A model generated the notes under the pieces. It searched no databases and was not told the DNA's origin. It saw only the letters and a program-made list of their open reading frames with translations. From a virus, in UHGV virus genome UHGV-0248979: a stretch of 64,000 nucleotides of DNA. The stretch is one strand, 5' to 3'. Within the stretch, counting starts at the first letter, position 1. Every line of letters begins with the position of its first letter. Below are positions 4,293 through 64,000 of this stretch, in pieces. Made by a program: the position numbers and the translations under genes.

Positions 4293-4600
4293 CAGATTTT
4301 GTCCTTTTCGAGTTCAGTTAAAATTTCAAACAGGTCTGCGTTGGACTGCAGTACGATTTCACTGCCTTCTGCTACAACAGTAATTAAAGGCTTCTTACCA
4401 CGTAGCAAGAACTCCCAACGCATTGTTCTTACGTGGCTGTCGAGTAACTGTTTTAATTTGTGGTTAACTTCAACTTCCAATTTGCCCAGTAACTGTGGTG
4501 TAATGCTTTCACCTGAGTTTTTGTTATAAAGTGTACGCACTAAAGAACGTAAAGAATAGCCAATGCACTGCGAAATTGCCCAACCCGAATAGTTTTCCAT
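4292..4600 (-). CDS. hypothetical protein (102 aa)
   Basis: ORF in operon-like array. Confidence 0.5.
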   Translation of the reverse strand: MENYSGWAISQCIGYSLRSLVRTLYNKNSGESITPQLLGKLEVEVNHKLKQLLDSHVRTMRWEFLLRGKKPLITVVAEGSEIVLQSNADLFEILTELEKDKI

Positions 4601-4601
4601 G

Positions 4602-5147: not shown

Positions 5148-5161
5148 TTCCGATACCCGAT

Positions 5162-5626
5162 TTAGTCACGAGACTTTATTTTAAGGTACGCAACCGCAGC
5201 TCCCACGATTGCAATACCGGCGCCCCAACCTATCTTTTCTATTACACTCATATCGTCCCATCTTTTCTCTTCGTTACGTCGTTTGGCCTCGTCTGCCCGT
5301 TCTCTCCACATCGCTTCGCGTTCCAGACAGCTGGGATTTATTTCCTCTTCACAACGACGTTTCCGCTCTTCTTCCCTAACCAGTTCTTCTAAATAGAGCC
5401 TCGTTTCTTCCACAGCTTGTTCATAGACGTCTATGCGTTCGGGAAGAATTCTCCTGTGAGCGGCTTTGTTGCGAACGGAAGCAATCATGTGGAGTTTCCG
5501 TTCGTATTTTGGTTCGAGAAGATGAGCTATGCTTTTGGTCTTCCCATGAAGCCCATGACCGGTACCGCCGAGTTTTTCCACAAGTTCTTCTACAGAAATT
5601 GCAAGATCGAGAATATATCCACGCAT
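5162..5626 (-). CDS. HEPN-like protein with C-terminal transmembrane helix (154 aa)
   Basis: R-x4-H motif (SVRNKAAHRR), charged coiled region, then hydrophobic IGWGAGIAIVGAAVAYL; start moved to ATG at 5624-5626 with SD GGAGA. Confidence 0.35.
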   Translation of the reverse strand: MRGYILDLAISVEELVEKLGGTGHGLHGKTKSIAHLLEPKYERKLHMIASVRNKAAHRRILPERIDVYEQAVEETRLYLEELVREEERKRRCEEEINPSCLEREAMWRERADEAKRRNEEKRWDDMSVIEKIGWGAGIAIVGAAVAYLKIKSRD

Positions 5627-5686
5627 AATTGTTTCTCCGCTTAAACGCAGTCTTGGGAGACATAAGTCTGTTCCCAACTGTAAAAA

Positions 5687-6055
5687 TCATTTCAACAAAA
5701 CAAGATGAATTTGGTATTCGTCATCAGCAGGAGAAGAATAATCGCCAGCTTCAGGTAACGTTATATCTCCCAGTAGAGCGTGGAAGGGTAATCCACGAGC
5801 AGCCTCAACTATTCGTACAAGCGGAAAACCTGTTCTTTTAATCCAATTGTAATCAACAAACATAACACCACCAGGACTTCCCGAACCTTCCCACACACGA
5901 ATTTCCACAGTCTTTCCCGAAAAGTTGGCAAGTACGGTGCGTAGTCCTAATCGCACATAACTGGGAAAGGGTACTTCAATAACTTGTTTTGGTAAAACAA
6001 ATTCAGGGAATTTAAAACCGAAACCTTTGGGTGTACTAAAAAACTGAGCTTGCAT
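5687..6055 (-). CDS. hypothetical protein (122 aa)
   Basis: ORF with SD AAGGAGA. Confidence 0.55.
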   Translation of the reverse strand: MQAQFFSTPKGFGFKFPEFVLPKQVIEVPFPSYVRLGLRTVLANFSGKTVEIRVWEGSGSPGGVMFVDYNWIKRTGFPLVRIVEAARGLPFHALLGDITLPEAGDYSSPADDEYQIHLVLLK

Positions 6056-6087
6056 GATAATTCTCCTTTAGGGTAAAAAATGAAAAT

Positions 6088-6113
6088 ACCCTACTCCTGT
6101 CTAGGAGTAGGGT
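6088..6113 (-). terminator. intergenic hairpin CCCTACTCC...GGAGTAGGG (hairpin family member)
   Basis: 9-bp stem; A-rich on plus strand upstream = U-run for minus transcript. Confidence 0.45.
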
Positions 6114-6118
6114 AGGTA

Positions 6119-6778
6119 TTACATACGGGTAACTGAATCCCAGTAATCGCGAAGATATTCTTGATCTTCAGGATCTTTCGGTGTAGCCGGAATGTGGCCG
6201 TCAAACTCAAACGGAATTACAGACAGAACATCCGCAATCTCGTAACGCTCGACTTCCAGTTCAACTTTCACCCAGTCACCGACGCTGGTACTACTACGCA
6301 TCTCGGTGAGGAGATCGTTAAAGTCAGCCGAAACTTCAATTGCAGGGTGTCCGGTGGTGATAGTGAAAATATCAATATCCCAATGCTTAGCGCCTTTATC
6401 GGCTAATTCACCCGGTTCTAAGTGGATACGTTTCACCAGGTGAGCCAAATAACCGTCCTTGTAAAAAGAGAGTGCAGAACTAATACCGATATCCGAATTC
6501 TCTTCAACCTTTCCGTCCAGGAATTTACGCTTAAGCGTTAGCTGTGCTGTACCGTCTTCTTTAATACGGATACGACGACGCCCACCTTCTATCGGCATGA
6601 GAATGTCCATGAACATCTTAGTGGACTGTGCGTGTAGCCAATCCCATCCCGCTTGCGTGGGTTTTACCCAAACGCAATATTCCTTTTCCACTTCACGTTT
6701 AATGGATTCGCCTGCAACGCGAATAACTTCTTCTTCCTGCGCTTTTTCCAATTGCGCAAGGGTATCGAATAATCCCAT
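6119..6778 (-). CDS. hypothetical protein (219 aa)
   Basis: ORF; start overlaps upstream stop (TAATG). Confidence 0.5.
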   Translation of the reverse strand: MGLFDTLAQLEKAQEEEVIRVAGESIKREVEKEYCVWVKPTQAGWDWLHAQSTKMFMDILMPIEGGRRRIRIKEDGTAQLTLKRKFLDGKVEENSDIGISSALSFYKDGYLAHLVKRIHLEPGELADKGAKHWDIDIFTITTGHPAIEVSADFNDLLTEMRSSTSVGDWVKVELEVERYEIADVLSVIPFEFDGHIPATPKDPEDQEYLRDYWDSVTRM

Positions 6779-7620
6779 TAGATTAATCCCATACTTTCAC
6801 TGACGCTCGTAATGTCGAACGTTGTGTCGTTAAAGTCGATGTTTTCTACAATAGAAACCACCAGATTAGGAAGCCATTCTGAATGGGGTGGTGTAATAAC
6901 CCGGCCGTTCATAACGTAGTAATGCAAGAACGGTAGTCCCATCGAATGGCAGTACGATAACACATTACCTAAGCAACTCCCGTCAAACTTCAAGAGTCGG
7001 AGCTTACGCAGCAATGCGTTTTGAAATGCACCGTTCGCGTAATTGCTAAACTCGCCAGGTCGATAATCCGTGCCCCCGTAGATACTCGCCTTTAATCGCC
7101 GACCGCGTTGTATACATTCAGCCCCAGTCAGGGTTCGTAATAAACGAATGTCTGGATATTCAGTTTCCAAACGACCCAAAGCGTTTATTCCGTAGCCCTT
7201 GTAGAACAGATAGTCTACGATCCTTAAATAATGATAGTAACCTTCCAACGTTAAAAACTGACCGTGAATTGTGTCGAATTTAGCACCGTTAGGTTGCGCG
7301 TAGAAGTTACTGATCATTTTCCCTACGGTAGTGCGACCGTTAGAGTAAAGATTAAGATGGTTGATACCGTCGGTAAAAGGGAGTTTTTCGGGTAACGCAC
7401 AAACGTAGCCTAAACGACGAAGGTATAGGACATAAACAAAGCGCTCATCAGGAGTAAGCACAATGTTCGACGCGCTAACGTATGTATTAGGATTATTTCG
7501 GCCAGGCTGATAACCCAGCGTTAAAGCCAATGCTTGATTGTCTTCGCTCTGACTTTTGATCTTCTTTAATACGGAACGCAGTAATTGTGGTTCGGTCATA
7601 ACCGGCCTCTTAAATTGCAA
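6778..7620 (-). CDS. hypothetical protein (280 aa)
   Basis: ORF. Confidence 0.5.
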   Translation of the reverse strand: MQFKRPVMTEPQLLRSVLKKIKSQSEDNQALALTLGYQPGRNNPNTYVSASNIVLTPDERFVYVLYLRRLGYVCALPEKLPFTDGINHLNLYSNGRTTVGKMISNFYAQPNGAKFDTIHGQFLTLEGYYHYLRIVDYLFYKGYGINALGRLETEYPDIRLLRTLTGAECIQRGRRLKASIYGGTDYRPGEFSNYANGAFQNALLRKLRLLKFDGSCLGNVLSYCHSMGLPFLHYYVMNGRVITPPHSEWLPNLVVSIVENIDFNDTTFDITSVSESMGLI

Positions 7621-8884
7621 AATAGTCTTCCACGATTTTATCGGTAGACTGGTAACTTACACTGCCTGCAGCAATCACGTAATTACGTTTCTCAGTGGTC
7701 AGTAGTGCCTGAATCGCATTTACGCCCGCGTAGGTGTAAAGTTTAAGTTCAGTCATCTCCGGCGTGATGTTCTTCGCTTTGTCCCACTTTGCATCTAATC
7801 CTTTAAATAGCGTTAATAGGCGAGTACCATACGTTTTGAAACTGACACCAGGTTCAACCCGAAGGTTAGCCATGAGGTTTTGGATAACGGTGGTTGCGAT
7901 CTGGGTTCCTTGTCCTGGTTGGAGTTTATCCAGATAGTATTCCGTTGAATCCAGATTACCTGTCGCTGCCGCCTGAATCATCAACTCGCCGTACAGTACC
8001 TCTTTTGCTTGTGTGTCGGTAATCGCTTGAAGCATCGGTTCGATTTTAGCCGGTAAACCATAACTGTTCAGTTTGGTAGATAGGCCATAAATCAGTGCTG
8101 AAGAGGTATTAATGTCTAACGTGGAGAAACTGTCGCTGCCTTTAAAGCTGTTAATCAGGTTATCGATGGCTAAGAAGTCGTCTAAGTCTTTGTAGCTGTC
8201 GAAAGTATGTTGTACGTCATCAACGATCGAGGTGATTTGATAACGCATACTGTTGACTTCGGACATAAACCCGTTGACTTCTTGACTAACTTCCGAGGGG
8301 AGTTTAGCCAATTGCCCAGCAATGTTCATCGTCCCTTCGAGACGTTTTTTCACCGAGTTAAAGTCAGTACCGATACCGGATAAAACGGAGTCGGTTAAGC
8401 TGCCGATACTATCCCACCCTTTACCTAACAGCTTCCCCATCCCACCTGGACTTAGGTAGTCTAGTGCTTTTAGGCCATCTTCATCCTTTTTCTTAAAGGG
8501 TTCAGAAACGTCACGCTTTTGTGGGTCGAGGACAGGAAGCGTTTCTTTGGTATTAGATGCAAAACCGGGAACCTTTTGTCCTGGCGACACCCCGGAGGCT
8601 GAACTCCCCGCAGTCTTAGTTCCCCCAACACTGGCGGTATCGCTACCGCCAAAAAGGTTACCAATTTTACTGGTCAGCTCGTTGCCGCCGCTAATGAGTT
8701 TGTTGAAAGTTTCACCAGCGCGGTCTGATAGTCGGCTGACGCTATCGACCGTGTTCTTAATACCACGCTCCGCATTTTCCACTGTTGTTTGTACGCGGTT
8801 TGTGGCGCTCTTTGCCGTATTAACGGAATTATCGATTGCCGACTGACCTTTATTTATCTGACTGGTTATTTGGTCGATTTTCAT
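7610..8884 (-). CDS. hypothetical Ser/Thr/Gly-rich protein (424 aa)
   Basis: ORF; start moved to ATG with SD GGAGA. Confidence 0.5.
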   Translation of the reverse strand: MKIDQITSQINKGQSAIDNSVNTAKSATNRVQTTVENAERGIKNTVDSVSRLSDRAGETFNKLISGGNELTSKIGNLFGGSDTASVGGTKTAGSSASGVSPGQKVPGFASNTKETLPVLDPQKRDVSEPFKKKDEDGLKALDYLSPGGMGKLLGKGWDSIGSLTDSVLSGIGTDFNSVKKRLEGTMNIAGQLAKLPSEVSQEVNGFMSEVNSMRYQITSIVDDVQHTFDSYKDLDDFLAIDNLINSFKGSDSFSTLDINTSSALIYGLSTKLNSYGLPAKIEPMLQAITDTQAKEVLYGELMIQAAATGNLDSTEYYLDKLQPGQGTQIATTVIQNLMANLRVEPGVSFKTYGTRLLTLFKGLDAKWDKAKNITPEMTELKLYTYAGVNAIQALLTTEKRNYVIAAGSVSYQSTDKIVEDYFAI

Positions 8885-9695
8885 TCTGGTCTCCAATTTG
8901 GTATTCGTCAAGGTTTACCGTGACCTGAACTTCGTAGATCTTATTGTCTTTCTGACGCCTTAAGGTCAAAAGGATTTCGAAACTACGAACATCAATTGCC
9001 TTGAGTACCCTCATAAACCATTTCCAGGAAAACTTCTTTTTTAACCTTAGATTGTGCTGCATATTGTGCCGCAAATCATTTCGTTTCGACGGCGTCTGCT
9101 CACAGTTAGCGGGATCGTTAACGAAGTTTGTGGAAAGACGGTACCACCAATCCGCATTCATTTTCATGTTTGCGAAGATAGTCCAAGTTAACCGAGATAA
9201 CGGATGTACCATCATCTTTGCGGTCTCACCACAGTTCTGGAAATAACGGTTCAGTTGCGCCGTTGCAGACTCCTTAGGTCGTTCGTCGTTATCTTCGAAC
9301 AAATCCCGAGCGAGATCTTCACGCACGCGTGTGGTAACTTCAGATACGGTTTTTGTTTTGAAGTGTCCTCGGTAAGTGGTTACACAAATCCGCAGTGTTT
9401 CCACTCCGGTAATCACCAACCCTTCTGTAAAACCTCGCCAGGTAAGATCGACAGGTAGTGCAGGGATGTTACCTGAACTCAGCTTCGTGGAGATACGTTG
9501 TATTCGATCGTCCATCGTTGCTTTTGAACGTGTTTTAAATTCTGGAGACAGAATATGTTTGGCGACGGCGAGTTTGTAATCCGAAGGCTTCCATCCGATC
9601 AATTCTTTATAATTCCAATAAAGCGTTTGAAGTGGTCCGCCAGCACGTTCGTCTTCAGCGTCCACGACCACACTTACTTTTTTGCTATCCATCAC
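8850..9695 (-). CDS. hypothetical protein (281 aa)
   Basis: ORF. Confidence 0.5.
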   Translation of the reverse strand: MMDSKKVSVVVDAEDERAGGPLQTLYWNYKELIGWKPSDYKLAVAKHILSPEFKTRSKATMDDRIQRISTKLSSGNIPALPVDLTWRGFTEGLVITGVETLRICVTTYRGHFKTKTVSEVTTRVREDLARDLFEDNDERPKESATAQLNRYFQNCGETAKMMVHPLSRLTWTIFANMKMNADWWYRLSTNFVNDPANCEQTPSKRNDLRHNMQHNLRLKKKFSWKWFMRVLKAIDVRSFEILLTLRRQKDNKIYEVQVTVNLDEYQIGDQNENRPNNQSDK

Positions 9696-11486: not shown

Positions 11487-12151
11487 GACGGATGGCCTAT
11501 GTTGTTACCGATATGCATCGCTTTGAGGTACGCTGACCACGTCCGTGTTGCTTTAGAACTCGTTCGCTCAGCTCCAGGCAAATCGATACGTCCTTTACCG
11601 GTTTGGCGCAGCGACTGATAGAAAGCACGTTGTAGTGCGTCGTTACCACCACGCGCCCACAAGAACTCTTTCAGTGTCCAGTCGTGACCATCGGAATACA
11701 TGATGTATGCTTCTGGGAAGGAGACCCCGGATGCTTTGGAAGGACCGACAACTTGACCGGAGAGTTTATCGCGAACTTTGTCGTTCTTCGCAACCGCCAT
11801 TTTCTTCTCTTGCATCTGCGTCTGACGACGGACAGGCAAGCGTAAGACCAAGTGAGGGTAACGAGTACGGTGATAAACACCTGTTTTTGGTTCTGTTAGC
11901 CACAACCGTTGCTCCAGGTTTACCCCTAGGATTTTGCACACCTCGATATTGCGCAGGTGGTCAATTTCGACTTTACTTCCCACCGGGTTGTAAATAGGTA
12001 AACCGTTACGAAGTCGGTTAAACTGTTCGTCGGTCATTCGTGCGAAGGCTTTCTTCGCGGCTTCGGCATTAATGCCAGAAGGGTCTACCAACTTTAAGAT
12101 TTGTAAGGCGTAGGCTTCCGCCTTTTTACGCCGCGCTGGTTCGAGTTTCAT
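11483..12151 (-). CDS. hypothetical protein (222 aa)
   Basis: ORF. Confidence 0.5.
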   Translation of the reverse strand: MKLEPARRKKAEAYALQILKLVDPSGINAEAAKKAFARMTDEQFNRLRNGLPIYNPVGSKVEIDHLRNIEVCKILGVNLEQRLWLTEPKTGVYHRTRYPHLVLRLPVRRQTQMQEKKMAVAKNDKVRDKLSGQVVGPSKASGVSFPEAYIMYSDGHDWTLKEFLWARGGNDALQRAFYQSLRQTGKGRIDLPGAERTSSKATRTWSAYLKAMHIGNNIGHPS

Positions 12152-53371: not shown

Positions 53372-56300
53372 ATGCCGAGAGAAGACGCGGCGCAGTTTAA
53401 CGGTACGCTAAGCACAACGACGTACCCTAACCGATTTAACGTGGTCATTCCGCCTGAAGGACCTTTTTATCGTATCGGATTAAAACTCACAGTAGCCGAC
53501 GATACCGCGCCTAACGGACGTCGTACTCTGATTGAGGGGTTGGACTACTATTTAGGCTATTACTTTAAAGAACTCGCAGAAGCTGAACAAGATCAGATTT
53601 ATGGCGGGTTTATGTTGCTTACTGCAACAGAAATCGAATATGAGATTTTAGGGGTAGCACGGCAGTATCGTGTACCGCAATCTGAAATCGGGAAGTTCTT
53701 AGTTCGTACTGACCTGAAAGACCCGCGTAACGTGGACTGGTCGGAGTTAATGGCGTACGCGCCGGTTATTCAACCAATCGACCCCCCTGCTAACTTAGAA
53801 GAAGCTATTCTGAGGGACGAGGTCGTTAAAGCGTTGAACGATATCCGTAAGAAAATCGTTCAGCGTTCAACAGAGTTAGATGCGGCCTTCACCGAAGTCA
53901 CTAACCTGATTTACGAGAACGGTAAAAAGATTTTCGATGAAGAACTATACCAACACCACCTTAATCCTAACGCTCACCAGTATACGACCAATGACGTTGG
54001 GGCCCTTCCGGTTTTAGGACGTGCTGTTGACGCTACAAAAGCGTTTGGGTTGACAATTGACCAACTGGCTACGCTGATGGGTTCGGCGGGCATTGAGCAA
54101 TCAGACGTTGAACAGCTAATGGGTGAAGCCCTCGGTACCGTTTACGGTCGTTGGGGCACCACGAACGGTAACGAACTAACGTTTAAAACACCGGGTGGAC
54201 ACATCATCAGCATCCGTGGTGATAAGTGGTTAATTACCTCCCCGCAACCGTTAGTGATTAAAGCAGACCAAGACAACAACGAATCCGGTTTGGCGGTTGA
54301 GTTTAGTGCGGGACTGAATACGCTTTGGGTACACTCTGGGTCAGAACAGGATGTATTAGCACCGGTCTATAACTCTGTGTATCTCGTTACACCAGAAATG
54401 GTGAACATGTACCTGACGTCTGTAACGTTACTTGAAGCGAATGCCTATTTCAAACCGTCAGACACCGTAAAACCGTACGGTACAGCGAAGCAGTCTAACC
54501 CACTAACGTTGAACGCGAATATTCCCACAGCAACCGAGTCGGTTTATGGGGTGTTTTCGATTACGAATATCGCAACCTCTGTAGCGCTAGGCACTGCTAT
54601 TTCCCAAAAGGCTGTGACCGAGTTAAAAAACCGGTTGGACTTGTACGTTGACGACGACTACACGGTTAACGGTAAAGGGTTTGTTAAGACAGGCGACAAC
54701 ATGGTGTTAACCTTAACGAAGGCCGATTTCGGTATCGATAAGATGAATAACACCGCACCCATCGCTAAACCGGTAACAAAAGCGTTAGCGAACGTGCTGA
54801 AAAATAAAAGTTTGAAGGTACACACGCACACTACCGCTGATTTGGATAATGTCCCGATTGGTAGCGCAACAGTGGACGGTATCTTACAGCTGTGGGATGC
54901 GATTGATACCACGAATGATAAAGCCGTCACATCACGCCAAGGGTGGCTGTTCGCAAAAGAGATTAAGAAGGTCTCTGATAAACTGAATACCCTCTTGCCC
55001 GCATGGACAACGGCCGGGAGCAAATATACCAACAATTCGATATTGCCGATCTTGTCGATGGGTAATTACGAAGGTTATGGTAAAAACATGGATGCGCTCC
55101 AGATGGTTATAGGGGTACAACAAGGTAAGCTTTATGCTTTAATTAGCTCTAAATCCGCCCTTCCGGGAACTGAGGGTATTTATTACGCTGTTGCTGGGTT
55201 AAAAAACGACAAAAGTCTCGGTGAAATTTACAAAACAACTTTCCGTTATAAGCCGAAAGGGTTAGAGACGAATTATCCGGGGGTGGAACTAAAAGAAATT
55301 ACCGTTACTGGTACCGAAGCATTTATAGCGAAGGGCAGCGACGATAATTATTATTTAGTTAAACTGAACGGTTCAATGGATTACACCAAACATACCGATG
55401 TCAGGTTGGTAACTTTCTCAGAATTTGTTTCAGAAACAACATGGGAATTTGTGCCGAATATGTTCATGGATCGTGTGGTCATAGCCGATAACGGCGTCTA
55501 TGTTTTGCGTACGATGCTAATGGCCGATCTGAAAAACAATAGTCTGGTGGACTACATTAAGGATACTCCGCAACCTATGTTCCGTGTTGGGTTATTGCGA
55601 CTTAATAAAACCGATCGGTTTGAACAGGTTGATTTAAGCTCTACACGAAAAATCGGTAAGTGTGCCGATTTGGTTGAACCTGGCGCGTTCGATGTAGATA
55701 ATCCGAATACGAAGCGTCTTGCCTACTTCACTGCGGAAGGCAAAGCGTTGTGGACAGTGAATTTACAATTAACTAGAGGGGTGTCAAGATGGATAACGCC
55801 CGTTGTTAAGGACGGTCACTTGTTAACCGTCGGCGTGTCTGGCGTTTGTCTTGGTTTTTCTTCAACGAAAGGTACCACATTCGGGCCATGGAATGGTGCT
55901 TATCGTCTCGACCTATTAACCGGGGAGGTTGGGTTAGAGACAACTAACATCTTCCCAATCAAAATCGATACTACAGGTTGCTACTTAAAAGACGGAACAA
56001 AAATAGAGCTGAAATGGAAATGGGCTACTCGAAGTTCTGGCTATATGGCCGACAATAGAATCTGTGTCGGTGATATGGTTTATTCTTGCTGCTGTTCGAC
56101 AGAAAAACAACTTGCACCATCTCTCCATTACCAGAAACTCCCAGAAGGAGTTAGTTATCTGGACTATGTTAAGTTGAGTGTGGGGTATGAGGGGCAATCT
56201 ACGTTTGAAAATCGGATAAATCCTGTGGTGGGTTCGGTGTGGAAACCGTCTATGACCTTCCCATTGTTCTTCCCAGGAACAAACAAAGTATGGCTTAAAC

Positions 56301-58558
56301 ATCAAAAATCGGCTTATTTCATCGAAGCCGAATATGATAAAAATACGACCTATGGTTATCCTGGATACGCTGGTTTTGGACCAACATCCCGCCGTGTTGA
56401 AAAAACAGCGAACGAATACGGCATATTGACAAATATACCGCTGGTTGTTACGCCAGAAATACCGAAAGGTCTACTAGATGGGGCTTACTTTATCGGTGCT
56501 GAAAGTAAACCATGTAAAGTTGTTTACGGTACCACTACGGTGGCTAGTGATCGGTTGTCTATCGATGCGGCAGAATGGGCGAAGTTGACTAATATTGTTC
56601 AGTCCAGCCAGTTCTCTGGGGCATCTAACGGCAACGCCTATGAGCGGATTAGCGTAGCTAAGACCAAAAAGAACAACTACAGTTTGTCCTTTTGGGTGCT
56701 TGGTCAAACGATGTCTGGTGGTCCGCTTTGTATCGCGATAGTGAGTCTTATCTATAAAGACACTGACGGGGTAAATAAGTTTGCTTTTTACTTCTTTCAG
56801 GTAAAACCGACTATAACCAACGGGGTCATAAGGTTCGTTAGTTCGGAAGCGAGAATGATGACGTTCAGGGAAAAAGTGGCCAGTAACGCCATTAATCTCT
56901 CACCCACAGCTTTTAATGGTGAACTTAAACAACGCTCCGGTCAAGTTTTCCTTTATTCGCAAGACGGACAAAAGTTCAGATTCTCAATACATAACCTGGT
57001 TGGCGGGAATCTTGTAGGATCAGAGATTTCTTTTGCTTTTGGGATAAACTTGACTAAAAAAGGCGAATGGTTTACCGGCGAAATTCATCGGGCGTGGGGC
57101 TATACGTATACGCTGAATAATACATCTGAAGTCTATATACCCGATCTCTCGGGCATCGCGCTATTGACTTGTAACTCGGAAGATTTAAACGAGTTGTATC
57201 TCGGTGGCGAACAGTATAGAATCTCTGATTTGTTTAACAAAAAATATACTGTTATCGATAAGATTATTATTGGTGGCGTACAAACACAGAGCGGTTGGAA
57301 TTTCTATCTGACGGAGGAAACCGAGTTAAGTTTTGGAAATAAAAGATATACCGTTCCAAGATGGTCCGTTGATTTAAGCGATGAATTCCCGACCAATCAC
57401 GCTAACCAGACGTTCTACGTTTATGCTGAAGTGGTCGGTTCTACTGCCCAATACCGCATCGGTTTAGAGCAGTTAGCTGATACCTCGTCGAGACTGTTTG
57501 TTGGGACAGTAACCACTGATTCGAACCGTATTACGGATATCAGTATCGATAAAGTAAAACGGTTAGGTCGCGTAAAAGAGCTGGAAAATCATGCCTCGAT
57601 TGTTGATCAGCATGATGTGGCGCAGGCGTTCGACAGGAAAACTGGCCCACTATTAACGCTGGTTAATAAACCCGTTAAAGTCGTTACAGCATCTGCGAGC
57701 AAGGGTGCTGGGTATGTCGATGGTCAGAAATGGAATACGTTGTCCGGGATTACAACACGTTCCAGGTTGCCGGTACAGGAAACCTATTCAGGTTATAAAA
57801 GTATCAGCAGGGTGGCGTATGAGAACTGCGCTGACCAGTTCTGGCAGAAAGCGGTTGCTGCGAACGTTGCAGCGGCTACTGCTTCTGAGAACAAACAAGC
57901 AGCAACCGCGAACATGAAGTGGTTGGGCGCGTATACGAAACCGACTACTGGCGAGTATGCATATCTGGCATTGAGTCTGCGTGTTAAAGTACCTGGCGAT
58001 CCTGGTACTACTAATCGTCGACTGAAAATCAGGCTTGCGGCCCCGACAGGTATAACTCAAGTTCGTTACGGGCTAAATCAGTCTGGCGGTACGATGACTG
58101 AACAGACAGTAACGCTAACTGCTAACAGTTACCTGGAAAAAGAACACGCGGGATTTAAGCCAGCCGCCGAAGTCCGCCTTCATGCTACGTTTGTCATTCC
58201 AAAAAATGAATACGATAGTTACCGGACCAAATTTGGTGCTGTTCAGCTGATTGACGTTGAGACGAACACTGTCATTAAACAGACAGATATCGACACACCG
58301 TTTATCGTGTACACCGCCACAGAGCAAGCGGCACAATCTGGTTTGGTGTATAAAGCGGTTAAGAGTCAGTTTCGTCAACTCCCGGCTCAACCTGTCGTCA
58401 TTGTAACTGATGGACAGACAGGGACTACACCACCGGTGAAAACCGCGTTTTCTGACGGGACATTAACGGTCTACGTGGCAACCACGTACGATGCGGTTAA
58501 CCCAGCACAAACTCGCGATATCGATAAGCTCCAGTTCAATCTTATGTTTACATCTTAA
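53372..58558 (+). CDS. tail fiber-like / receptor-binding protein 3 (1728 aa)
   Basis: SD AGGAG; shared N-terminal motif GPFYRIGL...GLDYYL. Confidence 0.55.
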   Translation: MPREDAAQFNGTLSTTTYPNRFNVVIPPEGPFYRIGLKLTVADDTAPNGRRTLIEGLDYYLGYYFKELAEAEQDQIYGGFMLLTATEIEYEILGVARQYRVPQSEIGKFLVRTDLKDPRNVDWSELMAYAPVIQPIDPPANLEEAILRDEVVKALNDIRKKIVQRSTELDAAFTEVTNLIYENGKKIFDEELYQHHLNPNAHQYTTNDVGALPVLGRAVDATKAFGLTIDQLATLMGSAGIEQSDVEQLMGEALGTVYGRWGTTNGNELTFKTPGGHIISIRGDKWLITSPQPLVIKADQDNNESGLAVEFSAGLNTLWVHSGSEQDVLAPVYNSVYLVTPEMVNMYLTSVTLLEANAYFKPSDTVKPYGTAKQSNPLTLNANIPTATESVYGVFSITNIATSVALGTAISQKAVTELKNRLDLYVDDDYTVNGKGFVKTGDNMVLTLTKADFGIDKMNNTAPIAKPVTKALANVLKNKSLKVHTHTTADLDNVPIGSATVDGILQLWDAIDTTNDKAVTSRQGWLFAKEIKKVSDKLNTLLPAWTTAGSKYTNNSILPILSMGNYEGYGKNMDALQMVIGVQQGKLYALISSKSALPGTEGIYYAVAGLKNDKSLGEIYKTTFRYKPKGLETNYPGVELKEITVTGTEAFIAKGSDDNYYLVKLNGSMDYTKHTDVRLVTFSEFVSETTWEFVPNMFMDRVVIADNGVYVLRTMLMADLKNNSLVDYIKDTPQPMFRVGLLRLNKTDRFEQVDLSSTRKIGKCADLVEPGAFDVDNPNTKRLAYFTAEGKALWTVNLQLTRGVSRWITPVVKDGHLLTVGVSGVCLGFSSTKGTTFGPWNGAYRLDLLTGEVGLETTNIFPIKIDTTGCYLKDGTKIELKWKWATRSSGYMADNRICVGDMVYSCCCSTEKQLAPSLHYQKLPEGVSYLDYVKLSVGYEGQSTFENRINPVVGSVWKPSMTFPLFFPGTNKVWLKHQKSAYFIEAEYDKNTTYGYPGYAGFGPTSRRVEKTANEYGILTNIPLVVTPEIPKGLLDGAYFIGAESKPCKVVYGTTTVASDRLSIDAAEWAKLTNIVQSSQFSGASNGNAYERISVAKTKKNNYSLSFWVLGQTMSGGPLCIAIVSLIYKDTDGVNKFAFYFFQVKPTITNGVIRFVSSEARMMTFREKVASNAINLSPTAFNGELKQRSGQVFLYSQDGQKFRFSIHNLVGGNLVGSEISFAFGINLTKKGEWFTGEIHRAWGYTYTLNNTSEVYIPDLSGIALLTCNSEDLNELYLGGEQYRISDLFNKKYTVIDKIIIGGVQTQSGWNFYLTEETELSFGNKRYTVPRWSVDLSDEFPTNHANQTFYVYAEVVGSTAQYRIGLEQLADTSSRLFVGTVTTDSNRITDISIDKVKRLGRVKELENHASIVDQHDVAQAFDRKTGPLLTLVNKPVKVVTASASKGAGYVDGQKWNTLSGITTRSRLPVQETYSGYKSISRVAYENCADQFWQKAVAANVAAATASENKQAATANMKWLGAYTKPTTGEYAYLALSLRVKVPGDPGTTNRRLKIRLAAPTGITQVRYGLNQSGGTMTEQTVTLTANSYLEKEHAGFKPAAEVRLHATFVIPKNEYDSYRTKFGAVQLIDVETNTVIKQTDIDTPFIVYTATEQAAQSGLVYKAVKSQFRQLPAQPVVIVTDGQTGTTPPVKTAFSDGTLTVYVATTYDAVNPAQTRDIDKLQFNLMFTS

Positions 58559-58598
58559 CGCCACGAGACAAGGACGTCTCGGATTAAGGAGAGTGGCC

Positions 58599-59798
58599 AT
58601 GGCCTCCATTGTATACCAATACCCTTTAGATTTAACGGGAACCCTAACCTCTAACGCCGTGGAGCGTCAGATTACGTTAGGTACAGGCAAAGTTAACCGT
58701 GCGTTTGCTTTCCCTGATGGTCCGTTTTATGCCGATACGTTCCGCTTGCGGGTTGCCAATCGACCTGGAGCGACATATGAGCGTGGAACGGACTATGAAC
58801 TGATTTTTGCACACCCGGCTTATGAGAAATTGACGAAGAACCGGGAAGTGGTAATGGCGGTTGTTGTAACGAACACCGCGATTCCGACCGATATCACGGT
58901 ATCGGCGCAAGTAGTTGGTGGTCCGCAGTCTGCAAATGTGACCGCGATTGAGCAAGCGATTGCCGAGTTGAAACTCGATAATCGAACTGTTGGCTTTAAA
59001 GACTTGCGAAATGTGCCGGACACGTTTCCTTCAGCACCAACGTATAAAGACGTCGGTGATATTTACGGCTTCGAATATATCATTACAGTGCTCGCTGGCA
59101 TTAAAGATGCGATAACTGCGGGTGATGCTGTACAGCTTGAGAACATCAAAGCGATTCTCGAAAGCCTGAAAAACGATTTCCTGGACGCGCTGAACGCGCA
59201 CATTAACTCCACTGGTAACGTCCACCATCTGGATATTCATCAGGTTAACGGGTTAACAGAAACGGAAATCCGCGCTTTAATTCGCAGTGTTCAGACAGCC
59301 ATTGATGCAACGATTGCCGATATCAATGCATTGAAGAAAGCGGACGTAGCGTTAGGAAAACGTATTGATGCCGTTGTCAAATCTCTGGAAGCGTGGAACG
59401 ACCAACTTAACGTCGTTGCACAAAACTACCAGAAAATGGCACTGGCAATGGCGAACCTAAACTCGTTAGTGTTACAGTTACAGAAAAATATCAACGATCT
59501 GAGCACCAAACTCAACCAAGCGATTCAACGTATTGCTGCGTTAGAGCAACGGGGTAATGAGACTGATCAGAAAATTGATAAACTGCAACAAAACCTGGAT
59601 GCGCTTAAACAACAGGTTGCGAATAACACGAACGCTATTAGTCAGGCGAATCAGAACCTACAAAACCACATTGCGGCGGATAATCCACACACAGGTTACC
59701 TGCACAAGAAATACGGTGGCGTGGTTCAGGCTTCAGTACACGTTAACGCTAACTTGACGTCCCGTGATGACGTTCAGGCAGAAGCAGGTACGAAATAA
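58599..59798 (+). CDS. short fiber-like protein with shared N-terminal domain and long coiled coil (399 aa)
   Basis: Start moved to ATG with SD AAGGAGAG; N-terminal GPFYADTFRL...GTDYEL; heptad-rich central region. Confidence 0.55.
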   Translation: MASIVYQYPLDLTGTLTSNAVERQITLGTGKVNRAFAFPDGPFYADTFRLRVANRPGATYERGTDYELIFAHPAYEKLTKNREVVMAVVVTNTAIPTDITVSAQVVGGPQSANVTAIEQAIAELKLDNRTVGFKDLRNVPDTFPSAPTYKDVGDIYGFEYIITVLAGIKDAITAGDAVQLENIKAILESLKNDFLDALNAHINSTGNVHHLDIHQVNGLTETEIRALIRSVQTAIDATIADINALKKADVALGKRIDAVVKSLEAWNDQLNVVAQNYQKMALAMANLNSLVLQLQKNINDLSTKLNQAIQRIAALEQRGNETDQKIDKLQQNLDALKQQVANNTNAISQANQNLQNHIAADNPHTGYLHKKYGGVVQASVHVNANLTSRDDVQAEAGTK

Positions 59799-59808
59799 TT
59801 TAATTACA

Positions 59809-59839
59809 GGAGGAACTATGTTTATGGACGTAGTCCTCC
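59809..59839 (+). terminator. hairpin GGAGGAACTA...TAGTCCTCC followed by T-run
   Basis: Approx. 9-bp stem, then ATTCTTTTTTATTTT. Confidence 0.5.
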
Positions 59840-59865
59840 ATTCTTTTTTATTTTAAGGATACGTG

Positions 59866-60258
59866 ATGGCGATCAGTGTTAAAAATGTGCGTGACCGAAT
59901 CACCAACGTAGAGAACCAAATGGCAACTGGCCCACGTGTTGATCCGCAAGTTGCGTCGAAAGCACATAACGCTGCTGATTCATTTTCAGGTTGGACACCC
60001 GGTCGATTAGATTGTGGAGGTAGCTGTAGCTGGACATGCTCAAACGGTTGTACGCATGGTTGTACGAGTTGTTCAGGTACATGTACATCGGTGTGCGTAG
60101 GAAGCTGTTCCTCTGCGTGTGGTAATCAATGCAGTGGTTGTAGCGGAACGTGTTCGGGTGGTTGTTCAGGATGTAGTGGGACTTGTAGTGGGGGATGTGC
60201 TGGACGTTGTTCCTCGGGGTGTAGTGGTTCTTGTGCAGGTGGTTGTTCTAACCCATAA
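59866..60258 (+). CDS. cysteine-rich leader+core small protein 1 (130 aa), candidate radical SAM substrate
   Basis: N-terminal ~55 aa non-Cys leader, then CGGSCSWTCS and ~26 Cys in CxxC/CxxxC repeats rich in Ser/Gly/Thr; SD AAGGA. Confidence 0.6.
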   Translation: MAISVKNVRDRITNVENQMATGPRVDPQVASKAHNAADSFSGWTPGRLDCGGSCSWTCSNGCTHGCTSCSGTCTSVCVGSCSSACGNQCSGCSGTCSGGCSGCSGTCSGGCAGRCSSGCSGSCAGGCSNP

Positions 60259-60277
60259 AAAATAAGGATCAATTCGA

Positions 60278-61192
60278 ATGGAAGAACTTACTAGACCGAC
60301 GGTATCCGATAAGCTTTACAGTAATCCGAGAACGTTAAACGTGATTACAACATCCAAATGTAATCTGGACTGTAGCTTCTGCGGCGGAGCCTATTACATG
60401 CATAGAGAGGATACAACCGCAGAAGTACAAAAGGAAAGTATTATCGAGGCGCTGGAAAATAACCCGACTATCACAAATATCCAATGGTCAGGGGGCGAAC
60501 CATTACTTGCCACGCGTAAAATTGATACCCTTATAGAAGAGATAAGGGAGAAGTATCCTCGTTGCGAACATTACCTGTATACCAATGGTTTAAAAATGCG
60601 TAAATCGCATCTACCGTTGTTAAAGGGTTTTGATAGTATCTTTTTTAGCATGGATGGATTCAAAGAATCAGAGCGTCCGTTCATGCGGATTATCGAAGAA
60701 AAACAATACGAGGTTTTGGAGACAATTTACGAATTGAAAAATATTCGTACTTGGGCGGTTTTGACACGCGAGCGTATTGGGGATAAACGTTGGTACGAAG
60801 ATATAATTGCGTTACATAACCACATTTACCATTATGGTTTTTGTGAGATGTCGCTGGTTTTGGACAAAAACATGCCAAAACCGTTATCTCCCGATCACGT
60901 TATGAACTTTATTTACGGGTATTTTAGAATTCAGGAGAATATAGAAAGACTGAATTCGTCCAATCGAAGTGAATGTGCGTTTACGCTAAATGCGTTATTT
61001 GATGAACCCTGTAACACATGTAGTCGTTGTTTTCGCATTGAGTCTGACGGTGCCCAGAACCAAGTAAAGAACGTTGAAATCGTAACGCAACACGGCTGTA
61101 GTGACTTGGCCAGAAAGGTTGGATTAGATGCTTACGACTATATACGTCGTGTGGTAGGGGCTAAGAATAGAGTCTCAGAAAAACTACGATAA
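60278..61192 (+). CDS. radical SAM enzyme, paralog 1 (304 aa)
   Basis: CNLDCSFC (CX3CX2C) Fe-S motif at residues 28-35, GGEPLL SAM-binding motif, extra C-terminal Cys cluster CNTCSRC. Confidence 0.8.
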   Translation: MEELTRPTVSDKLYSNPRTLNVITTSKCNLDCSFCGGAYYMHREDTTAEVQKESIIEALENNPTITNIQWSGGEPLLATRKIDTLIEEIREKYPRCEHYLYTNGLKMRKSHLPLLKGFDSIFFSMDGFKESERPFMRIIEEKQYEVLETIYELKNIRTWAVLTRERIGDKRWYEDIIALHNHIYHYGFCEMSLVLDKNMPKPLSPDHVMNFIYGYFRIQENIERLNSSNRSECAFTLNALFDEPCNTCSRCFRIESDGAQNQVKNVEIVTQHGCSDLARKVGLDAYDYIRRVVGAKNRVSEKLR

Positions 61193-61250
61193 TTTTACAG
61201 AAAGTGAATTATAATGTGTCCTAGGGGGCACTAAACCAGTAGGTATTAAA

Positions 61251-61649
61251 ATGGCGATTGGTTTATCTTCTTTAAAGGCCCGGCTAGATAACATAGACTC
61301 TACTGCATTAAAAAATACAGGTGCGGTGCAGAACTATATTCGTGGTAAAGCCACTAATAATAGCGATCTGTTTGGAGGACAGCCGAGAAATCACTATGAC
61401 TGTGGGGGTAGCTGTAGCTGGACGTGCTCAAGTTGTTCGGGCGGCTGTACCGGCAACGCCTCCGGCGGCTGCGGTTCTTCCTGTTCAGCGAACTGTGTTT
61501 CAGGATGTAGTACAGGTTGCACAGGTTGTAGCAGTACCTGCTCAGGAGGGTGCACAGGTAATTGCTCGGGCGGTTGTTCAAGTAGTTGCACCGGAACATG
61601 TTCAGGTTCATGTCGAGGCGGATGTCAGCAATCGTGTACTGGAAGATAA
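61251..61649 (+). CDS. cysteine-rich leader+core small protein 2 (132 aa), candidate radical SAM substrate
   Basis: Leader SLKARLDNIDST..., then HYDCGGSCSWTCSSCSGGC and long Cys-rich core. Confidence 0.6.
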   Translation: MAIGLSSLKARLDNIDSTALKNTGAVQNYIRGKATNNSDLFGGQPRNHYDCGGSCSWTCSSCSGGCTGNASGGCGSSCSANCVSGCSTGCTGCSSTCSGGCTGNCSGGCSSSCTGTCSGSCRGGCQQSCTGR

Positions 61650-61652
61650 GAA

Positions 61653-61862
61653 ATGATAAGTCTTAAAAACATACGCGACAGATTAGTAACGGCGGAGGGA
61701 TATATCACCACCGCTAATGCAAACAACTATATTGCAAACCAAGGAACGGTTTCCTCAACCAACAATCTCGCAGGATTACCTTTAAGTCATTATAATTGTA
61801 ATGGCGGATGTAGTTGGTCGTGCAGCGGTAGCTGTAGTAAGGGGGCGGGGGGGGGTAAGTAA
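61653..61862 (+). CDS. cysteine-rich leader+short-core protein 3 (69 aa as read); likely continues into next frame via G-tract slippage
   Basis: Leader ISLKNIRDRL..., HYNCNGGCSWSCSGSCS, terminates right after G5CG9 tract. Confidence 0.5.
   Translation: MISLKNIRDRLVTAEGYITTANANNYIANQGTVSSTNNLAGLPLSHYNCNGGCSWSCSGSCSKGAGGGK
61841..61855 (+). repeat. G5-C-G9 homopolymeric tract (slippage/frameshift-prone)
   Basis: GGGGGCGGGGGGGGG seen directly; removing one G joins the peptide-3 frame to the downstream 61863-62319 frame. Confidence 0.9.
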
Positions 61863-62319
61863 GCCCTCTAGCGGTGGTTCTACGCCAACCCCTTCAAGAC
61901 CAACCTACGACAACAAAGCCGTTGTTTATGTTGAGTCTAAGCTACACGCTAAAGATACTGTTCGTATCAATTTCTCTACTGGGGCTGTCTTTATTCAATG
62001 CGTAACGTTAACCGGTAGAGAGAAACCGATAAGGGTCTTTAAATCGTTACTGTCTGGAAAGTCCTACGCCTACCCTCAAGTTGCAATGGGTAATGGTATC
62101 ACTGTTAATTTTACAGACGCGGCTAGTTTTAAGATAGACTCTATCGGTAATGCATCTTCTGCTTCTATCTCATTAGAAGTATTAAGTAATTCCGGCGGAA
62201 GCATGGCGATTAAGCAGCAACCGAGTAAATCAAACGGCTTTACTGCAGAATTTGAAGTTACCGGCAGGCAATGGCGTGGCGGGTTCTATACCTTGAACGT
62301 CAGATTGACCGTAAAATAA
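61863..62319 (+). other. out-of-frame continuation ORF encoding a ~150-aa Ser/Pro/Thr-linker plus globular domain, reachable from peptide 3 by 1-nt frameshift
   Basis: +1 frame is open from 61801 through the G tract to the stop at 62317-62319. Confidence 0.5.
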
Positions 62320-62331
62320 TTGGAGTAATCA

Positions 62332-63219
62332 ATGAAAAACGATTTGCATTTAGCCTATAAAACAATTTTCAACCACCCACTTCATATTTCTTCCCCCGAT
62401 TCAATACGCGCTCATTTGGAAGATAAAGTTCGTTTGTTAACCCAGTTACCTGGCGAATGGCCCAAAGTGCGTGGTCGTTTTTTTACCGATCGCAATAACT
62501 ATTCAGTAGAAAACACTTTTAAAATACGCGATCTGACAGCAGAAAGCGTAGTGGTGTTTACCGGTGATTCAGATTTACGCGGTAAATTGGTTGACGGTAA
62601 ATATTTCTTTAGTGACGGTATTCTGAATAATTCTGTAGATTTGGAATTGTTCTTTACGCCATTTAAAGAGTTGAATGCGAAGCCTGTAGCACGACGTTGG
62701 TGGTCTCCAGACTATCTTGGTTCATTCCCGTACTTTTATGCCCTGGTTCCTGTAGAAACAAAAAACTATGTTGATACTGAACCGTATATTGAAATAGAAG
62801 GTTACGAGGAACTTGGCATCAACTGTTTAGCAGATCTGATGGCGTACAGTTACAAATTTATGTGGGATCGTGAACGTTCAGTATGGGTTGCCCTTACAGA
62901 TGAACATGAAATCACAAAACGTATTCGTAAACCATGGATGCAGCATTTAATTCAAACACGTATTGGTGAACATCCGTCATCGGAAGCAGATTTAGCGAAA
63001 CTTGTTAGTTTCTTAATGACGAAAGTCACGTTAACTGATGAAGAAAAAGCGGCAGTGTCGGCGGTATTGGAACGTAACGTAACGTTAGCGGATCTAGAAC
63101 GTTTAAACGTGCGTTATAAAGACCTTAATCGTATTATTGAGGCTTACAATTCACCGTTTGTATTAAAACCTGGAGTTAACGCTTACGACGATCCTTTGTT
63201 ATCCATTGGCTATATTTAA
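62332..63219 (+). CDS. hypothetical protein (295 aa) inside the radical SAM cassette
   Basis: ORF with SD-like GGAG upstream; no motif recognised. Confidence 0.55.
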   Translation: MKNDLHLAYKTIFNHPLHISSPDSIRAHLEDKVRLLTQLPGEWPKVRGRFFTDRNNYSVENTFKIRDLTAESVVVFTGDSDLRGKLVDGKYFFSDGILNNSVDLELFFTPFKELNAKPVARRWWSPDYLGSFPYFYALVPVETKNYVDTEPYIEIEGYEELGINCLADLMAYSYKFMWDRERSVWVALTDEHEITKRIRKPWMQHLIQTRIGEHPSSEADLAKLVSFLMTKVTLTDEEKAAVSAVLERNVTLADLERLNVRYKDLNRIIEAYNSPFVLKPGVNAYDDPLLSIGYI

Positions 63220-63241
63220 AAAATAGATGGACTCACCTGCA

Positions 63242-64000
63242 ATGACAACCGACGTAGAGCCAAGGTTATCGAATCGTTTATACAATAAACCCACCGTATT
63301 GTCCGTAGTTGCTACATCCAAATGTAATCTGGACTGTAGCTTCTGCGGCGGAGCCTATTACATGCATCGTGAAGATTCTCCGCGAGAGTTTCAACGTGAA
63401 CGAATTTTGAAAGCGTTGGCGTCTAACCCAACCATTACTGAAATTCAGTGGACTGGCGGTGAACCGCTACTGGCAACTCGAAAGATTGAGGCGTTTGTCG
63501 ACGAATTAAAAACGATCCGTCCTGAACTCAAACACCAGATGTTCACGAACGGTTTAAAAATGCGTAAATCGCATCTACCGTTGTTAAAACAATTCGATGG
63601 TATATATGTTAGCATCGATGGGTTTAATCTTTCTGAACGGCCTTTTAAGCGCTTTATTGATGATAATTGTCATGAAGCGTTAGAAGTAATTTACAGCTTG
63701 AATAATGTTAACACCTGGGCTGTTGTTACGAGGGAGAATTTATCCAATAAAAGATGGCATGAAGATATCATTCAATTACATACTGCTATCTATCATTACG
63801 GTTTTCGTTCCATGTCCTTATTACTAGATAAAAACATGCCAAAACCGTTATCTCCCGATCACGTTATGAACTTTATTTACGGGTATTTTAGAATTCAGGA
63901 GAATATAGAAAGATTAAACGTTCTAAATTCTAGAGACTGCGGTTTTATTGTAAACAGATTCTTCGATCATGCTTGTAATGTCTGTAGCGAAAGTCTCAGG
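63242..64000 (+). CDS. radical SAM enzyme, paralog 2 (3' partial, 253 aa in window)
   Basis: Manual translation (not in ORF track because no stop in window): SKCNLDCSFCGG, GGEPLL, C-terminal CNVCSE; blocks of nucleotide identity with paralog 1. Confidence 0.75.
   Translation, partial: MTTDVEPRLSNRLYNKPTVLSVVATSKCNLDCSFCGGAYYMHREDSPREFQRERILKALASNPTITEIQWTGGEPLLATRKIEAFVDELKTIRPELKHQMFTNGLKMRKSHLPLLKQFDGIYVSIDGFNLSERPFKRFIDDNCHEALEVIYSLNNVNTWAVVTRENLSNKRWHEDIIQLHTAIYHYGFRSMSLLLDKNMPKPLSPDHVMNFIYGYFRIQENIERLNVLNSRDCGFIVNRFFDHACNVCSESLR

Follow-up and report, generated by a model that had tools for sequence, protein, structure and literature searches.

The bacterial CXXX-repeat system of radical S-adenosylmethionine (SAM) enzymes and their targets (TIGR04114, TIGR04115, TIGR04116 and PF27846) has been defined bioinformatically, and we know of no published chemistry for it. 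QhpD, a radical SAM (rSAM) enzyme of the SPASM type, makes cysteine (Cys) thioether cross-links in QhpC, a small protein that is retained as a structural subunit. The covalently stabilised virion proteins and fibre domains known to us are autocatalytic or chaperone-based, and we know of none with dedicated rSAM enzymes. Here we describe a cassette of Cys-rich peptide genes and rSAM genes in UHGV virus genome UHGV-0248979, of which one strand of a 64,000-nucleotide stretch (the window) was analysed. By sequence relationship, the window phage is a jumbo phage that resembles Salmonella phage SPN3US (SPN3US-like). The cassette is probably a mobile, phage-encoded module of the kind that makes ribosomally synthesised and post-translationally modified peptides (RiPPs), and it would mature or cross-link the Cys-ladder domain of tail-fibre-associated proteins, a reading that we hold with moderate confidence.

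An earlier note on this DNA had offered three possibilities for the cassette: a free cross-linked peptide, Cys-rich fibre modules that need rSAM cross-linking, or metal-binding modules. We favour the second, because the same domain is fused to tail-fibre domains elsewhere. The note also knew of no described system of this kind in this context. This held for the phage-fibre connection, which appears undescribed, and a full-text literature search found no published description of the cassette; it did not hold for the parts, since phrog_6085, PF27846 and TIGR04114 were already catalogued without function.

Cysteine-rich peptides and adjacent radical SAM enzymes

Three small open reading frames (ORFs) near the end of the window, pep1, pep2 and pep3, are interleaved with two rSAM genes, rSAM-A and rSAM-B (Table 1). 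All five genes recognised in the earlier note are present, and its account of a common N-terminal region with a CSW-type motif was confirmed: the peptides share a region of about 50 amino acids (aa) followed by C-x3-C-S-W-[TS]-C, and are paralogs of one family, phrog_6085, which has no assigned function and is the only PHROG that they match. The ~80-aa core ascribed to pep1 and pep2 was correct in length (81 and 82 aa) and too rich in its Cys count, given as ~26; pep1 has 21 Cys, pep2 20 and pep3, which is without the long repeat, 4. Likewise, the CxxxC part of the reported CxxC/CxxxC spacing was upheld (17 of the 20 gaps in pep1), and CxxC occurs at only a few gaps. Of the pep1 core residues, 26% are Cys. 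The pep1 Cys number is 21 in the window and in all seven SPN3US-group relatives compared, and CxxC at the fifth pep1 gap is kept across relatives despite a sequence identity of only ~50%. Within the core units, position +1 after the Cys is Ser or Thr in ~51%, +2 is Gly in 38% and +3 is one of Gly, Ser and Thr in 75%; Asp and Glu together account for a few percent of the repeat positions and are nearly absent from the cores.

Low-complexity Cys-rich stretches are open in all six frames, and automatic gene callers fail there. The window cores were therefore assessed by a frame test, in which they were aligned to five relatives (61–83% nucleotide identity) and every differing codon was classed per frame. 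The results showed that 337 of the 512 differing core codons (66%) were synonymous in the Cys frame, whereas the synonymous share was 44% in the antisense frame with the same wobble position and 1–10% in the remaining four. On this substitution pattern, the Cys-rich ORFs are translated genes under purifying selection, and a non-coding artefact of a GC-skewed repeat was rejected. Tandem Repeats Finder detected no DNA-level tandem repeat, so the periodicity is held at the protein level. The start of pep1 is the ATG at 59866, and a GTG lies three bases upstream at 59863.

Among RiPP precursor families, the peptides matched TIGR04114, 'CXXX-repeat rSAM target', for which pep1 (20.1 bits) and pep2 (22.3 bits) marginally passed the cutoff of 20 bits; pep3 (13.7 bits) missed it, and the SPN3US orthologs (19.6 and 17.1 bits) fell just below. 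With 20–21 Cys per ~80 residues and no aromatic or charged residues to speak of, the cores could also be a metal- or Fe-S-binding domain, either metallothionein-like or a cluster carrier or reservoir, while the rSAMs would act on another target, for instance a nucleotide, a lipid or the large fibre proteins. However, metallothioneins have CxC, CC or CxxC clusters, whereas the CXXX spacing here is regular, and the cores match the rSAM-target families TIGR04114 and PF27846.

The two short rSAMs were found to be paralogs, 63% identical, each with CNLDCSFC (CX3CX2C) and GGEPLL as first reported, and both passed the radical SAM model PF04055 (52.6 and 49.7 bits versus a threshold of 29.5) and Fer4_12 (34.7 and 32.3 bits versus 22). 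Across 21 homologs, only six Cys are invariant (C28, C32, C35, C245, C248 and C274), and the last three correspond to the additional C-terminal Cys pointed out before. These three form CX2CX25C and fall short of a SPASM or twitch domain, the part of the expected profile that was not recovered: the window short rSAMs gave no SPASM Pfam match at E ≤ 1 and 38.7 bits for the twitch model NF033640 against a cutoff of 170. A three-Cys auxiliary site of the MoaA type is plausible from this arrangement. The short rSAMs reached no NCBIfam family cutoff. Assignment to the NrdG or QueE type, which the earlier note had named as counting against a peptide-modifying role, was examined together with MoaA and viperin and rejected (NrdG2, 36 versus 131 bits; QueE, 38.6 versus 260; MoaA, 45.6 versus 284; viperin, 45.1 versus 180). 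An AlphaFold (AF2) model of rSAM-A, with a predicted local distance difference test score (pLDDT) of 81.7, had SuiB (E 2e-11) and CteB (E 1.7e-10) as its nearest PDB folds, followed by viperins, MoaA, DesII, TigE, anSME and EpeE.

A third, long rSAM, apparently of the SPASM type, lies beyond the window end and had therefore not been seen in the earlier note, which also missed two ORFs within the cassette (61801–62319 and 62332–63219); the genes that it did list stand. In the C-terminal region of the long rSAM, C-x7-C-x9-C and CLGCPMKHACGSC are followed by one further Cys downstream. The PDB sequence that matched this enzyme best, the CX2CX5CX2C motif included, was the thioether-forming SCIFF maturase CteB (5WGG/5WHY; E 7e-12). 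In every phage lineage tested, the long rSAMs had PapB (NF047865) and TIGR04115 as best NCBIfam matches with full-length alignment; in the window phage, residues 10–371 align to positions 3–345 of 359 in TIGR04115, and no PF13186 match was reported. The equivalog cutoffs were not reached: for TIGR04115 (cutoff 350), the scores were 117.6 (window phage), 125.6 (SPN3US), 152.6 (L035, a P2-like phage) and 178.1 bits (L009, a T7-like phage), and for PapB (cutoff 340), 113.4 (window phage), 153.2 (L035) and 205 bits (L009). These affinities, with those of the short rSAM to SuiB and CteB and of the cores to TIGR04114, agree with the RiPP-type layout first suggested, namely a Cys-rich substrate beside peptide-modifying rSAMs in a virion tail-fibre module. 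They also bear on the metal-binding alternative. The resemblance of the short rSAM fold to viperin and MoaA would suit it, but the closest matches of the long rSAM were in every case peptide thioether maturases, and we consider a metal-binding role very unlikely.

The remaining conserved member of the cassette is a 295-aa accessory protein. Accessory proteins are mutually homologous across the phage modules, and no PDB fold match was found. TIGR04116 was not matched, at E ≤ 1 in NCBIfam for the 295-aa protein or at E ≤ 0.001 for the accessory protein of L035. A role as a leader binder of the RiPP recognition element (RRE) or PqqD type was considered and rejected, there being no fold or profile match in its support.

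The Cys-ladder domain in SPN3US-like and unrelated phages

Conservation of the cassette in related phages was examined at the protein level, since megablast of the cassette against the phage collection gave no match and only protein searches reached the SPN3US group. Tblastn with rSAM-A matched ~65 phage records, every one an SPN3US-like jumbo phage, at 39–56% identity; they included Seoulvirus, the Erwinia phage genera Erskinevirus, Machinavirus, Wellingtonvirus and Derbicusvirus, and Cronobacter phage CR5. The results revealed that the three peptides, the 295-aa accessory protein, the short rSAM and the long rSAM are kept in ~62 sequenced relatives. The N-terminal 50 aa of pep2 were matched in 62 phage genomes, and the peptide leader, the short rSAM and the long rSAM co-occur in the same ~62 SPN3US-group genomes. 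SPN3US, CR5 and the Erwinia phages share one gene order: fibre genes, pep1, pep2, pep3, the ~295-aa protein (phrog_8030), short rSAM, long rSAM, a 190-aa protein and a DUF4376 protein. Pep3 is kept as the third member of the trio in these phages and in a distant large phage, L011.

Beyond the SPN3US-group orthologs, the pep2 search retrieved proteins of 119–226 aa with longer N-terminal parts, the junction motif (N/D)AxxLxGQxxxxY(R/D)CxxGCSWTC and a CXXX ladder, several of which carry precomputed PF27846 (tSAM_targ_Cxxx_rpt) matches. A profile of the domain, run against 1.84 billion representative proteins, gave 336 matches at E ≤ 1e-3 and 63 at E ≤ 1e-10. In a set made of the pep2-search matches, the best 150 of the 336 profile matches and the three window peptides, the CSW signature occurred in 91 sequences, and the domain was nearly always the C-terminal end of proteins of 120–560 aa. 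Of 40 signature-bearing proteins scanned against PHROG, 34 matched phrog_6085, and the other annotated families among the top families listed were all tail or tail-fibre families: phrog_910 (5), phrog_5073 (4), phrog_972 (3), phrog_7389 (2) and collagen-like minor tail. A degenerate DNA pattern for CxxGCSWTCxxxC, searched in viral contigs, gave 15 loci, 14 of them chance matches.

The genomic settings of the domain differ in tail architecture. In T7-like podophages (L009/L010, L012/L013 and L052), tube and nozzle genes and the tail-fibre N-terminal adaptor PF03906 precede the module, with a small collagen-like fibre piece after the adaptor in L009/L010 and L052 and collagen repeats inside a 526-aa fibre protein in L012/L013; next come the Cys-rich protein, whose N-terminus matches the tail-fibre family phrog_5073, the accessory protein and two rSAMs, which in L009 are fused into one 668-aa protein. 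In lambda-like siphophages (L053 and L054), the order is gpM-L-K-I-J, Cys-rich protein, rSAM. In the P2-like myophage or prophage L035, the Cys-rich domain forms the C-terminal 130 aa of a 401-aa collagen-like fibre protein, which stands after baseplate wedge and fibre genes and is followed by a short rSAM, the accessory protein, a long rSAM and the tail sheath. L011 has the full jumbo layout: the trio, whose pep3 is reduced to CGGSCSW, is followed by the accessory protein, a short and a long rSAM, and a protein homologous to the 190-aa one.

Counting the SPN3US group, L011, L009/L010, L012/L013, L035, L052, L053 and L054 as eight independent lineages, we found an rSAM gene directly after the signature-bearing Cys-rich gene in 8 of 8, and the module directly after tail-fibre or tip genes in 7 of 8. 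In three of the eight the Cys-rich and rSAM genes overlap by 4 nt, suggesting an enzyme-substrate pair, which again argues against metal binding. This strict co-occurrence, the families to which the enzymes stand nearest and the matches between the cores and rSAM-target families together make the Cys-rich domains likely substrates of the adjacent rSAMs. The repeated fusion to fibre domains, together with the position behind fibre or tip genes in phages of four unrelated tail types, suggests that the modified domain is part of, or attached to, the fibre apparatus; incorporation of the Cys-rich domain into the virion would follow from the same comparisons.

A different fate of the peptides has to be weighed here. 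Their ~50-aa leader might be removed, and lysis might free the cross-linked pep1 and pep2 cores, which would then serve as a signal, a toxin or an anti-defence agent, the fibre location being incidental. The leader-plus-core format, the small stand-alone genes and the adjoining RiPP-type rSAMs fit such a free RiPP. The domain profile also retrieves small bacterial proteins with leaders of the twin-arginine translocation (Tat) type (P0052, P0201 and P0233) that match TIGR04117, P0233 above its cutoff; the phage domain is related, on this retrieval, to bacterial CXXX rSAM targets, and these relatives are small Tat/leader-type CXXX peptides. The L011 copy, moreover, is without a recognised adjoining tail gene. 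However, Pfam, NCBIfam and PHROG scans detected no peptidase or transporter family among the proteins of the cassette or of the other phage modules, the same domain with its junction motif is fused C-terminally to tail-fibre-domain proteins of 200–560 aa, and the module follows fibre or tip genes in all but one lineage. Because of the missing peptidase and exporter and of these fusions and placements, a released peptide is the less likely outcome, and we regard it as unlikely.

The same fusions bear on whether the domain stays in the particle. As a non-virion assembly factor, it would act as a chaperone or scaffold that folds or attaches the giant fibres, a role in keeping with a module among fibre genes that has tail assembly chaperone and DUF4376 annotations nearby, and with an N-terminal module, shared by the trio, that could bind fibres transiently. 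In other phages, however, C-terminal fusion means that the domain is made within the fibre polypeptide. Cleavable C-terminal chaperone domains exist in other fibres and temper this argument; even so, we give the assembly-factor explanation little credence.

Three side observations concern the distant phages. Just upstream of the L011 module, at 9220–9441, lies a 73-aa gene with a precomputed Pfam match to 'Acb2_Tad1_hairpin', an anti-defence sponge family. The L011 contig also carries another rSAM gene (4271–5455) and a Cpn60 gene. The human gut phage L055 (MT835573.1) has a variant module among tail genes at 5448–8251, with a 193-aa protein ending in a 22-Cys CXXX/CXX domain without the CSW motif, two small ORFs and a long phrog_1802 rSAM only, without a short rSAM.

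Genomic setting of the cassette

The window phage itself is represented in public data: a 100%-identical protein is present on contigs of 222–230 kb from NCBI assembly GCA_015624795.1 and from several ENA metagenomes. On those contigs, the remainder of rSAM-B (307 aa in total) is followed past the window end by the 440-aa long rSAM, the 190-aa protein (phrog_7988) and the DUF4376 protein, which has weak tail-fibre similarity. From 44760 on, nearly all window genes lie on the + strand and include very large fibre-like ORFs of 1440, 1394 and 1728 aa. A tRNA scan of the window found zero tRNA genes. The coordinates of the features are given in Table 1.

Table 1. Features of the cassette and its flanks, in window coordinates unless another contig is named
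Feature	Position	Strand	Description	Family or profile
1728-aa fibre protein	53372..58558	+	tail/baseplate-periphery fibre protein, SPN3US gp168 homolog; N-terminus shared and collinear with the 1727-aa SPN3US coding sequence	
400-aa protein	58596..59798	+	coiled-coil virion structural (fibre-like) protein, SPN3US gp167 homolog	phrog_2163, E 6.5e-104
Hairpin	59809..59854	+	terminator-like hairpin and T-run between fibre gene stop and pep1, then UUCUUUUUUAUUUU	
pep1	59866..60258	+	130 aa; 49-aa N-terminal region, CGGSCSWTC motif, CXXX-repeat core	phrog_6085, E 3e-40
rSAM-A	60278..61192	+	short radical SAM, 304 aa; lineage-specific extra copy between pep1 and pep2	PF04055, Fer4_12
pep2	61251..61649	+	132 aa; 50-aa N-terminal region, CGGSCSWTC motif, CXXX-repeat core	phrog_6085, E 3e-39
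pep3	61653..61862	+	69 aa; same N-terminal region, CNGGCSWSCSGSC motif alone	phrog_6085, E 8e-25
ORF172	61801..62319	+	lineage-specific; off-frame to and overlapping pep3	no Pfam, PHROG or NCBIfam match
Poly-G tract	61842..61857	+	G5CG9 at the pep3 stop/ORF172 junction; length polymorphic among near-identical contigs	
Accessory protein	62332..63219	+	295 aa; non-enzymatic conserved module member	phrog_8030
rSAM-B	63242..64000	+	short radical SAM, SPN3US gp164 ortholog; cut by window end (full length from L005)	PF04055, Fer4_12
Long rSAM	L005 13871-15193		440 aa, apparently SPASM-type; outside window, follows rSAM-B	

Two fibre genes precede the cassette. SPN3US gp168, the homolog of the first product, is reported to be a tail protein that resembles phiKZ gp131 at the baseplate periphery (PMC5105663). 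The product of the second gave weaker tail-fibre phrog matches and coiled-coil Pfam matches, and is annotated in relatives as a virion structural protein. RNA folding of the hairpin between the second gene and pep1 gave a 13-bp stem of −17.7 kcal/mol (z = −3.79), and 0 of 200 shuffles folded as well; it sits ~10 nt from the pep1 ribosome-binding site.

Two features set the window lineage apart from SPN3US, the insertion of rSAM-A between pep1 and pep2 and the extra ORF172. The rSAM-A insertion is polymorphic in close relatives, being present in L005–L008, L020 and L021 and absent from L025, L022 and SPN3US. A metagenomic protein, P0003, seems to combine segments of rSAM-A with segments of rSAM-B, a mosaic that points to recombination of the two paralogs. 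ORF172 is absent in SPN3US, L020 and L021, and L025 and L022 hold in-frame deletion relics in the same off-frame. The poly-G tract has G9 in the window, L005 and L007 and G10 in L006 and L008 (the corresponding L005/L006 stretch is 11503–11784). The ATG inside pep3 is the sole start codon of ORF172 over its first ~75 codons; where the tract is G10, that frame lacks a start codon and stands at −1 to pep3. From these frames, the tract may allow slippage or a phase-variable pep3–ORF172 fusion.

The Cys-rich genes are poorly represented in existing records. In public contigs of the same phage, pep1 is uncalled and pep2 is called in another frame. The SPN3US record has solely a wrong-frame ORF (SPN3US_0166/gp100) annotated at these genes, and the records of Proteus phage 7, SPAsTU, Phobos and Huxley show either no ORF or wrong-strand ORFs there. 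Mis-annotated Cys-rich genes in GenBank/RefSeq also include Phobos gp167 and gp168, Huxley gp176 and gp177, and those of phiEaH2; the loci are L001 7040–8069 (SPN3US), L003, L016 5589–6410, L018 5700–6437, L019 5533–6648 and L014. The true start of the SPN3US short rSAM is apparently 120 nt upstream of the annotated one.

Proposed fibre maturation and comparison with known systems

In the mechanism that we propose, the substrates would end in a Cys-ladder domain made of the junction (N/D)-A-x-x-L-x-G-Q-x4-Y-x-C-x2-3-C-S-W-T-C and then ~20 Ser/Thr/Gly-rich CXXX units. In the host cytoplasm, a SPASM-type rSAM related to PapB, TIGR04115 and CteB would link Cys sulfurs to neighbouring residues, most likely as thioethers, with the short rSAM, carrying its three-Cys auxiliary site, and an accessory protein of ~240–300 aa as partners. 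The outcome would be a rigid, redox-insensitive domain. The product would be neither cleaved nor exported; it would remain on its N-terminal part, which is a recognisable fibre domain in T7-, lambda- and P2-like phages and the ~50-aa shared module on pep1, pep2 and pep3 in SPN3US-like phages, and would join or dock onto the tail-fibre apparatus. Disulfides cannot form in the reducing cytoplasm in which phages assemble, and redox-independent thioether stabilisation would plausibly be useful for that reason.

By analogy with CteB, PapB and QhpD, iterative thioether formation along the CXXX ladder is likely, and the acceptor must differ from that of PapB, since the cores have hardly any Asp or Glu. 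Even pep3 orthologs that have lost every other Cys keep the invariant CSWTC motif; given that SuiB, the fold nearest to the short rSAM, is a Trp-cross-linking enzyme, we speculate that the short rSAM recognises this motif or makes a special cross-link there. The three SPN3US-like paralogs may form a heterotrimeric mini-fibre. A broader reading is put forward tentatively, our confidence in it being slightly less than even: a horizontally mobile 'fibre-hardening' module of Cys-ladder domain, two rSAMs and accessory protein, shared by jumbo, T7-, lambda- and P2-like phages, would give tail-fibre proteins a terminal rod or knot stapled by thioethers, and would be the first case of a virion structural protein cross-linked by dedicated rSAM (RiPP-type) enzymes.

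Several observations weigh against a fibre maturation module. The substrates of the jumbo phages and L011 are small stand-alone proteins with a leader-like N-terminus, the classical format of RiPP precursors, and no recognised tail gene adjoins the L011 module. The strong terminator-like hairpin and its U-run part the fibre genes from pep1. All rSAM family matches are far under their cutoffs, and the accessory protein has no RRE-like or other known fold. PapB-type enzymes use the Asp/Glu acceptors that are scarce here, and the chemistry may differ. Published SPN3US virion proteomics could not detect the Cys-rich ORFs, because these were unannotated or annotated in the wrong frame.

If the fibre maturation reading is true, RiPP-style radical SAM chemistry serves not only secreted peptides but also the building of virus particles. 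The reading would account for radical SAM genes within the structural gene clusters of jumbo phages, such as the eight of an Aeromonas chimallivirus that were called 'highly unusual' in 2025 and left unexplained (PMC12390700). The reference annotations of the genetic model phage SPN3US, and those of dozens of its relatives, would prove to lack three conserved genes or to have them in the wrong frame, and Salmonella and Erwinia phages with amber-mutant genetics would offer a tractable system for the uncharacterised CXXX-repeat maturase family. The module would possibly be relevant to fibre stability, host range and phage engineering.

Among the known systems, the bacterial CXXX-repeat system has, like the phage module, a target with Cys at each fourth position among Ser, Gly and Thr residues; the cutoff of its TIGR04114 model is reached by pep1 and pep2, and TIGR04115 is the best or second-best NCBIfam match of the long rSAM. 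In contrast, the phage rSAMs score 118–178 bits where 350 are required, the accessory protein lacks a TIGR04116 match, the phage module adds a short rSAM and the invariant CSWTC, and fibre or docking modules replace the Tat-type leader. The ranthipeptide system PapB/freyrasin and CteB/SCIFF resemble it in the full-length alignment of the long rSAM, the CX2CX5CX2C auxiliary-cluster motif and the repeated short Cys units. They differ in score (113–205 versus 340 bits for PapB), in acceptors (Asp/Glu almost absent here), in the number of units (~20 in the phages versus 6), in the leader peptidase and exporter, neither of which was found in the phage module, and in its setting within a phage structural gene cluster.

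QhpD/QhpC provides a precedent for rSAM cross-linking of a retained subunit, and the long rSAMs match TIGR03906 with 58–132 bits; the cutoff of 453 is far off, however, and QhpC has few cross-links plus a quinone cofactor, without CXXX repeats or a phage context. The His-Xaa-Ser system has the same four-part architecture (target HxsA, long rSAM-SPASM HxsB, short rSAM HxsC and accessory HxsD), with HxsB among the matches of the long rSAM and HxsC among those of the short rSAM. The scores of 40–75 bits are below the cutoffs of 268–370 (138 bits for HxsB with the L009 fusion, still below), the phage repeat is Cys-based, and the phage accessory protein is unrelated to HxsD. The isopeptide chainmail of the HK97 capsid and the tip or chaperone domains of tail fibres, finally, resemble the proposed module conceptually, in covalent virion reinforcement made in the reducing cytoplasm and in the C-terminal position on the fibre.

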